Shown piece after piece: positions 39,313-39,590 of a DNA stretch of 64,000 bases (its first letter is position 1; every line of letters begins with the position of its first letter). Position numbers and translations under genes: made by a program. Origin of the DNA: Octopus vulgaris (Eukaryota); the NCBI GenBank assembly GCA_951406725.2, contig OX597836.1, forward strand, positions 14,570,001-14,634,000, in the 5' to 3' direction. The notes beneath the pieces were generated by a model. That model saw only the letters and a program-made list of their open reading frames with translations, was not told the DNA's origin and did not search any database.

Positions 39313-39358
<46 letters not shown>

Positions 39359-39444
39359 GGTCCCGGGTTGATTCGGGGTTAACCACAGTAAATAAGGTAC
39401 TCAATACATAGCAGAGTAAAATTAATTTATTATATAGAAGGAGG

Positions 39445-39495
39445 AGCTTCTACAGGACTAGAACTGTTTCATTCAAGAGAAATCTTCAGGAAGCT
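39445..39495 (-). ncRNA. Minimal type I hammerhead ribozyme motif, mirror copy
   Basis: Exact reverse complement of 39492-39542. Confidence 0.8.
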
Positions 39496-39542
39496 TCCTG
39501 AAGATTTCTCTTGAATGAAACAGTTCTAGTCCTGTAGAAGCT
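39492..39542 (+). ncRNA. Minimal type I hammerhead ribozyme motif
   Basis: agcttc-CTGAAGA-t ttc tctt gaa t-GAAA-cag ttctagtc ctg-TA-gaagct. 6-bp stem I, stem III acag/ctgt, GUA triplet, canonical CUGANGA/GAAA core. Confidence 0.8.
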
Positions 39543-39590
39543 CCTTCTATATAATAAATATATATATATATATATATATACATGCATATT

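Follow-up and report, generated by a model that had tools for sequence, protein, structure and literature searches.

Penelope-like elements (PLEs) leave inverted, 5′-truncated copies with a tail on one side, an arrangement that is standard for these elements (PMC8557442, PMC3846280). A putative TATA box and initiator have been described in the pLTR of Pen2a_Av of Adineta (PMC3846280), and the promoter of Penelope of D. virilis is internal and TATA-less (PMC2377424). Pairs of hammerheads on opposite strands, 100–700 bp apart, have already been recorded in Schistosoma (PMC4209133). For Poseidon of Anolis, uncleaved RNA is the main template; the available text of that paper does not allot one start site to each strand and offers no explanation of inverted insertions (PMC11167929). 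The origin of the tandem and inverted insertions of PLEs and the role of the hammerhead are called open in the available parts of PMC8557442 and PMC11167929. The searched literature, largely without subscription journals, contained no report of a stop at the cap site or of its use to account for minimal inverted stubs, and the available text of an octopus repeat paper (PMC13282606) makes no mention of hammerhead, ribozyme or Hydra. The kind of insertion described here is thus already known; what seems new is a variant form with an unusually legible likely mechanism.

We analysed a 64,000-nucleotide stretch of the Octopus vulgaris genome (the window). A first-pass annotation had described an element of about 205 bp set in (TA)n, and this was borne out, as copy A occupies positions 39356–39559 with (TA)n on both sides. 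In copy A, two sides of about 65 bp each form a near-perfect inverted repeat, with a 69-nt extension at the left; the long arm carries a private 3-nt duplication near 39437–39445. The core had been called palindromic; the hairpin is indeed far beyond chance (z = −22, with 0 of 200 shuffles folding as well), but the palindrome is asymmetric, since one arm has the 69-nt tail and the other ends short. Comparison with related copies led us to the reading, which we think probably correct, that this stub consists of two back-to-back PLE 3′ ends in (TA)n, both stopped at the likely capped mRNA start of the parent element. The presence of a hammerhead on both strands follows from this arrangement. The coordinates of the features are collected in Table 1.

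Table 1. Features of copies A and B, numbered from the first nucleotide of the window.
Feature	Position	Strand	Description
Copy A long ('T', tail-bearing) arm	39356..39495	-	PLE sense; starts at +1 (39495), includes the hammerhead and reaches the tail end, +137
Copy A short ('s') arm	39492..39559	+	PLE sense; starts at +1 (39492), includes the hammerhead and reaches the internal end, +68, which abuts (TA)n
Copy A head-to-head junction	39492..39495		4-nt self-complementary AGCT overlap; both arms end at +1
Type I hammerhead motif	39492..39542	+	6-bp stem I, weak 3-bp stem II, stem III; predicted cut after 39536
Mirror hammerhead motif, long arm	39445..39495	-	Predicted cut after 39451
PLE 'tail' (+69 to +137)	39356..39424	-	Full-length copies continue into the 5′ UTR, with ATG at +184
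(TA)n target, left flank	39310..39355		
(TA)n target, right flank	39560..39580		
Copy B, separate stub	30992..31169		Short arm left, tail arm right; 3-nt TTC overlap junction inside the hammerhead

A generic hammerhead descriptor gave exactly two matches in the window, both in copy A. The words agcttc-CTGAAGA-12 nt-GAAA-cag/ctg-TA-gaagct were present on both strands as previously proposed, with AGCT common to the two motifs at the centre, and the core elements CUGANGA, GAAA and UH were accompanied by three stems. The loop of stem III of the plus-strand motif contains CTAG, and cofolding indicated that two monomers can pair through loop III. The description of the hammerhead as intact held for the type I core words on both strands but not for stem II, which is weak, with 3 bp and a U.U where G10.1-C11.1 is usual. 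None of the Rfam hammerhead models scored on the 76-nt motif stretch, and the isolated motif folded like shuffled sequence (z about 0). Variation among recurrent haplotypes was confined almost wholly to +1, N7, loop II and loop III, and the sole change in stem II was limited to one array. Judged from sequence, this pattern is as expected for a conserved hammerhead.

An Rfam scan of the whole window gave 674 matches; among the 150 listed, all were of the miRNA type and below gathering scores. Because copy A is short, TA-flanked, high-copy and built as an inverted repeat, and because Rfam miRNA models do score on its hairpin, albeit below gathering thresholds, we considered whether it might be a MITE derived from a DNA transposon or a microRNA-like hairpin, with no more than a chance likeness to a hammerhead. 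We give this explanation next to no chance of being right: the ends are asymmetric, the haplotypes differ almost only at the hammerhead positions named above, and the family is continuous with a PLE ORF encoding RT and GIY-YIG, which already refutes it.

The genome examined comprises 2.8 Gb in 227 contigs and is very rich in microsatellites. A 46-nt core had 1,704 exact matches, compared with 0 for the control. Short palindromes with 38–68 nt between exact anchors numbered 1,537, those with 69–99 nt between anchors 345, and two shorter classes 246 and 83, making at least 2,211 in total. Since exact anchors were required these counts are lower bounds, and they leave out short copies with inner spacers of 32–37 nt. 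Arms with native upstream sequence numbered 3,135. Among the 100 places listed, divergent core pairs were separated by anything between a few bases and about 9 kb. The exact centre of copy A, AAGCTT, occurred 706 times. One identical unit was found in 28 of 30 loci that had been selected by score for likeness to copy A, while copy A and one other locus differed by a small indel. The inference that the family is high-copy and young was therefore supported by both counts.

The first-pass annotation had also pointed to a near-identical copy 8 kb from copy A. Although the family is multi-copy and young, as this implied, copy B is a different unit with a different junction. It lacks 23 nt at the centre relative to copy A, which leaves one arm devoid of a catalytic core and reduces stem I of the other to 3 bp; a complete ribozyme is absent from both strands. 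The copy B junction is also seen at C1:7.44 Mb and, within a different subfamily, at C1:33.37 Mb. Copy B is followed at 31240–31580 by a common short interspersed repeat, presumably an octopus SINE, pieces of which flank many fetched loci. The window as a whole contains 69 stop-to-stop frames of at least 150 aa, mostly overlapping simple repeats, as well as larger-period repeats at 5836–6528 (265 bp) and 24297–25052 (about 50–110 bp).

Long arms of the family run upstream into native sequence and contain a long microsatellite-rich stretch and an ORF in sense orientation to the hammerhead; a search with that ORF found near-identical open frames elsewhere in the genome. In full-length copies the order is the TATA motif (−29), +1 at AGCTTCC, the hammerhead, the short end (+68), the tail end (+137), an ATG (+184) and the ORF, followed by a microsatellite-rich 3′ UTR of 3.1–3.5 kb and then the same hammerhead block again. 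At the 8 loci measured, the stop codon lay 3.1–3.5 kb ahead of the next hammerhead. This block order identifies the tail as the start of the next unit, a situation shared with Poseidon of Anolis (PMC11167929). The 713-aa ORF of locus L113 has RT together with GIY-YIG at its C terminus, with YRDD at 347 and VY..YIG at 587, an RWK-like RIRWR at 36, DKTKN at 116 (DKG changed to DKT), a CxCX5C linker (CNCPDKTTC), CxxC (CDLCISE) and CxH (N..CMH). By reading, the CCHH motif is absent from its EN, and there is no CX2-5CxxC linker. The ORF is visibly like Hydra-1_Obim and Hydra-2_Amil in the available supplement of Craig et al. (PMC8557442), a comparison made by eye. Its Atlas neighbours carry HTH_animal and GIY-YIG; Pfam gave no score on a 492-aa C-terminal part of the ORF, and PDB had no match for a 722-aa frame. 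The hammerhead lies in the pLTR and insertions are in (TA)n, both as in the Hydra clade. On these motifs and the by-eye likeness to the supplement alignment, the parent is a Hydra-clade PLE. The link to a Penelope-like RT that had been suspected was thus confirmed, as longer copies run into the PLE ORF.

The 3′ UTR (L064:520–3500 and other long arms) is mostly of the (TA/CA)n type, so each long insertion spreads kilobases of microsatellite; it may thereby feed the repeat load of the genome and supply new (TA)n targets. LINE-type ORFs of 1,015 and 1,039 aa are nested in PLE 3′ UTR arms (L061:4254–7298 and L065:4601–7717). When the fetched loci were scanned for other PLE families with the same layout, other hammerhead motifs turned up. 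Hammerhead-like motifs in unrelated repeats occur at L075:8446 (+), L251:2937 (+), L097:4182 (+), L114:511 and L262:3130 and in L183 and L280. A second Hydra-like ORF (34–43% identity) is present in L075, L086 and L098, and L085 has an RT and GIY-YIG ORF of 775 aa.

The first-pass annotation had favoured a non-autonomous, ambisense, retrozyme-like unit, with a fixed palindrome centre as one check, and had named independent truncated insertions with inverted pLTRs as the alternative. We found 28 junction types among 50 consecutive short copies, of which 13 were like copy A; these were the first listed of the 38–68-nt class, mostly from contigs C1–C4, and not a random draw. The centre is therefore not fixed. 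Copies with the AAGCTT centre within the 50 fall in six subfamily haplotypes, and each of five recurrent junction types spans between two and six haplotypes. Among 46 AAGCTT-centred loci, a set that includes the 30 picked for likeness to copy A, the arms were identical in 36 and asymmetric in 10, and every asymmetry was private. The copies also show the hallmarks of inverted 5′-truncated PLE insertions, namely divergent arms, a variable inversion point and a tail at one end only. Because junctions recur across subfamilies and longer versions extend several kilobases into the ORF, the stubs look like independent insertions rather than a self-propagating retrozyme, which was the alternative named beforehand. 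From these sequence comparisons we consider a PLE origin with independent formation of stubs very probable. The recurring centre is accounted for by a shared stop point in the parent RNA together with AGCT microhomology.

The proposal that the 200-bp palindrome is at least partly a non-autonomous unit, transcribed and then copied by the PLE RT, and that the hammerheads of both strands work, could draw on the 706 copies that have exactly the same centre and on the 28 letter-identical loci, subject to their selection by score. The unit also keeps the tail, a likely RT-binding region, and the family does yield short tandem arrays. Against this, about two thirds of short copies have junctions other than that of copy A, the AAGCTT centre occurs in six haplotypes, no asymmetry between the arms is shared in the 46 loci, and the stub has lost the TATA motif. 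Copy A is head to head, not in the head-to-tail arrangement with sense type I hammerheads that defines non-LTR retrozymes. Moreover, within the stub the antisense arm is transcribed first on either strand, and by computed folding the hairpin (−115.4 kcal/mol) exceeds the forced ribozyme fold (−44.4 kcal/mol) in stability by about 70 kcal/mol. Competition from the long hairpin had been named beforehand as a reason to abandon the retrozyme idea, and by computed folds it applies. We thus regard such a unit as quite improbable for copy A, although some of the 28 identical loci may descend from one master by copying and a minority lineage may propagate as a fixed unit. Since the stub has no promoter and read-through RNA would zip into the hairpin, folding predicts that its two hammerheads do not cut and that it is a dead by-product.

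The outer ends of two-armed insertions, short or long, follow a rule with few exceptions. One tail end and one short end were found in 49 of 50 short copies, 29 of 30 loci of a second sample, 18 of 18 simple two-arm loci in L061–L080 (a tandem and a three-arm locus were left out) and, for long pairs, 10 of 11, with L216/L217, which has two tail ends, as the exception. The longer arm in the 50 copies was the tail arm in 18 and the short-end arm in 19, with 13 equal. Since either arm can be longer, simple snap-back from one end is a poor explanation; we rejected it for the tail arm on this ground and because a zero-loop AAGCTT centre cannot fold back. Subfamily markers were common to both arms in 43 of 49 copies, against a chance match of 0.14. 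Four of the six pairs flagged as discordant were parser artefacts of a too-short arm, and two were single-base differences. Such agreement between arms might also arise if the two were copied from separate RNAs of one locus, or through conversion at a later time.

As for the inner ends, in 100 arms of 50 copies, 40 ended at the A of AGCTTCC (+1), 7 one base short and 1 beyond; +1 is the first base, and hence the 5′ edge, of stem I. In the longer-spacer class, a hand tally of 100 listed arm ends gave 58 that read GGAAGC-N-C, 19 with GGAAGC-N and another base, 10 with native run-on and 13 with earlier stops; the extra bases in this class were mostly short templated inserts. Genome-wide exact counts gave 493 arms with G at −1 after A, C or T and 37 with C at −1 after A or G, an imperfect control because only two preceding letters were counted for C as opposed to three for G. 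None of the native contexts examined had G at −1. Of 30 loci with G at −1, 3 have a solo arm joined as (TA)n-G-AGCTTCC, and in another 4 the G comes after host, ORF or tail sequence; for the remaining 23, a templated insert from the mirror arm could be its source. One copy, L122, natively reads TGCTTCC, which could account for some of the ends with A then C. In 15 of the 58 extra-C arms, T opposite +1 is replaced by A, C or G, frequently in just one of the two arms (listed longer-spacer arms; L080, L164, L166 and L184–L186), possibly a misreading of a modified cap-adjacent A.

TATAAA begins at −29 in 30 of 38 distinct upstream contexts, although the bases between it and +1 differ. The remaining contexts comprise five truncated nearer than −29, one deletion and two with CATAAA. 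As the subfamilies are close relatives, this conservation is not independent evidence, and the region of the motif is AT-rich. Among non-array loci with a tail-to-ORF junction, 13 keep the upstream promoter region, three begin at the hammerhead (L220, L234 and L238, all of which include the start of the ORF region) and six are otherwise truncated. Contigs of four runs guessed to be RNA cover the region, and such contigs give no starts, strand or level. An untemplated G at a complete 5′ end is an accepted sign of cap copying in L1 and SVA (PMC4859970). Taking the sharp stop, the extra G and the TATA spacing together, the simplest reading is that +1 is a capped mRNA start, and we consider it likely that the +1 of both copy A arms is that of the parent element. 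A splice acceptor at AG/CTTCC was also considered, as the D. virilis intron ends at helix I, and was rejected because the arms keep AG and there is no constant upstream exon.

The stop falls exactly on the 5′ edge of stem I, and AGCT is a direct repeat on both arms. With the same PLE origin and independent insertions, the stop at +1 might instead result from structure or processing: the cDNA could fold back on the mirror stem I, 5′-3′ decay could halt at a protein-bound hammerhead, or the centres of long palindromes could be lost between AGCT repeats. Fold-back on the cDNA's own stem I would likewise add the first C, and 5 of 50 listed 67-nt matches join a full arm to the other arm at stem I, as fold-back predicts. 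However, 25 of 43 T-C ends lack the second C that it also predicts (hand tally of listed ends), and neither fold-back nor deletion explains the solo (TA)n-G-AGCTTCC arms (3 of 30). The longer palindromic GTTAAC just upstream made 0 of 50 listed junctions in the 69–99-nt class, and CTAG made 0 of 50 in the 38–68-nt class. In addition, RT has unwound stem I before it meets its 5′ strand. On balance a structural or processing origin of the stop appears unlikely.

We also looked for a second stop at the hammerhead cut site. In the size class short enough to end near the cut (83 palindromes), a hand tally of 100 listed arm ends placed 9 at the predicted cut, compared with 6 and 5 at the flanking bases. 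With no sharp peak, such a stop is at best weak, and cleaved RNA is a minor template at most. A single locus, L254 (C15:44,664,000–44,664,400), is a 125-bp tandem whose unit runs from the predicted cut site to the 5′ UTR, and by its sequence looks like a copy of cleaved, possibly circularised RNA.

Returning to the capped start at +1, these observations suggest a mechanism for stub formation. Transcription would begin at +1, driven by the TATA motif of an upstream partial copy, so that the mRNA would include the priming region twice, once at each end. Acting perhaps as a dimer, the PLE protein would nick both strands of a (TA)n tract and start one cDNA at +137 and another at +68, the template probably being the same RNA for both. 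Engagement of the 3′ copy of the priming region would give long arms of variable length. If the 5′ copy were engaged, synthesis of the two cDNAs would reach the capped end after 68 and 137 nt and run off there, and the cap would often be copied as C. The cDNA ends would then be joined by short microhomology, mostly the self-complementary AGCT, sometimes with templated inserts.

In its most general form, which we hold with about equal belief and doubt, this reading treats the genome as a fossil run-off assay: with a capped +1 start and a TATA motif supplied by the upstream copy, one RT dimer would prime both strands of a (TA)n site on a single RNA, starting from two fixed points that lie 69 nt apart. 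Every insertion would then be an overlapping inverted pair, and engagement of the 5′ copy of the RNA would have produced thousands of strong-stop stubs. As the promoter would be donated by an upstream partial copy, only partial tandems would be active. If true, a single mechanism would account for the inverted repeats of PLEs as well as for their pLTR and one-sided tail, with single-base predictions: an RNA start at +1, and priming at +68 and +137, one each per insertion. The family offers thousands of young, readable products of PLE transposition. It also carries a warning against taking opposite-strand hammerhead pairs in such genomes as a sign of ambisense ribozyme replicons, since they are an insertion by-product. 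Were the stubs transcribed by read-through, they would supply perfect 60-bp RNA hairpins against the active element on a large scale.

The family also forms three tandem arrays, in which every unit contains the TATA motif, the hammerhead, the tail and the ORF start, and each of which has a central inversion. The array at C2:64.628–64.632 Mb (L221–L233) has 277-bp units, with one tail end and one short end as its outer ends. Those at C5:37.481–37.489 Mb (L239–L247, L262 and L265) and C8:91.475–91.483 Mb (L263) have units of 333 and 271 bp, and the outer ends read were short ends. These arrays look like non-LTR retrozymes arising from the PLE, and could also be templates for stubs.

The closest described elements are Hydra-1_Obim and Hydra-2_Amil (Craig et al. 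2021, PMC8557442), which likewise have a single ORF with RT and GIY-YIG. Hydra-clade PLEs in the available parts of that paper also share the RWK-like, DKT, CxCX5C, CxxC and CxH motifs, the terminal-repeat hammerhead, (TA)n targets, partial tandems, inverted 5′-truncated copies and a tail at one end. The octopus family is distinct from Hydra-1_Obim and has another hammerhead; three query words gave 0 matches in the available supplement (PMC8557442). Its tail is 69 nt rather than 30–40 nt and its unit about 5.5 kb, compared with under 3 kb typical of Hydra PLEs, and the thousands of minimal stubs with a sharp stop have no described counterpart among Hydra PLEs in the available text (PMC8557442). 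The unit length is due to the long microsatellite 3′ UTR.

Penelope of D. virilis and of Adineta vaga resembles the octopus family in its inverted terminal copy, one-sided tail, microhomology junctions and solo pLTRs, whereas a cap signature or strong-stop class is not described for it in the available text (PMC3846280, PMC2377424). In vitro work on Poseidon of Anolis carolinensis (Frangieh et al. 2024, PMC11167929) likewise showed a tail bracketed by two internal RT start sites, with both target strands nicked and extended, and a dimer is predicted; Poseidon belongs to another clade, however, and its ORF starts inside the hammerhead. Like the minimal hammerheads of PLEs (Cervera and de la Pena 2014, PMC4209133), the octopus motif is of type I, lies in pLTRs, has a palindromic loop III and is found mostly in truncated copies, but it differs in its short stem II without G10.1-C11.1, its 4-bp stem III and the overlap of the two motifs at their 5′ ends. 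Because the D. virilis promoter is TATA-less and internal, the octopus promoter layout is not general among these elements.

The inverted segments of L1 are not known to overlap, whereas both octopus arms copy the same stretch and reach a complete 5′ end after only 68–137 nt. Twin priming of L1 is otherwise similar in that both target strands prime on RNA and inversion junctions show microhomology, and complete L1 5′ ends also bear an extra G (PMC4859970, PMC11702581). Animal non-LTR retrozymes, as described in the available text, are likewise non-coding, derived from pLTRs and equipped with a type I hammerhead (bioRxiv 10.64898/2026.07.22.740005, PMC7229834). Unlike these retrozymes, which are head-to-tail tandems, copy A has a head-to-head layout in which each strand bears one sense hammerhead (bioRxiv 10.64898/2026.07.22.740005). 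It is the three arrays of the family, with their 271-, 277- and 333-bp units, that fit the retrozyme description.
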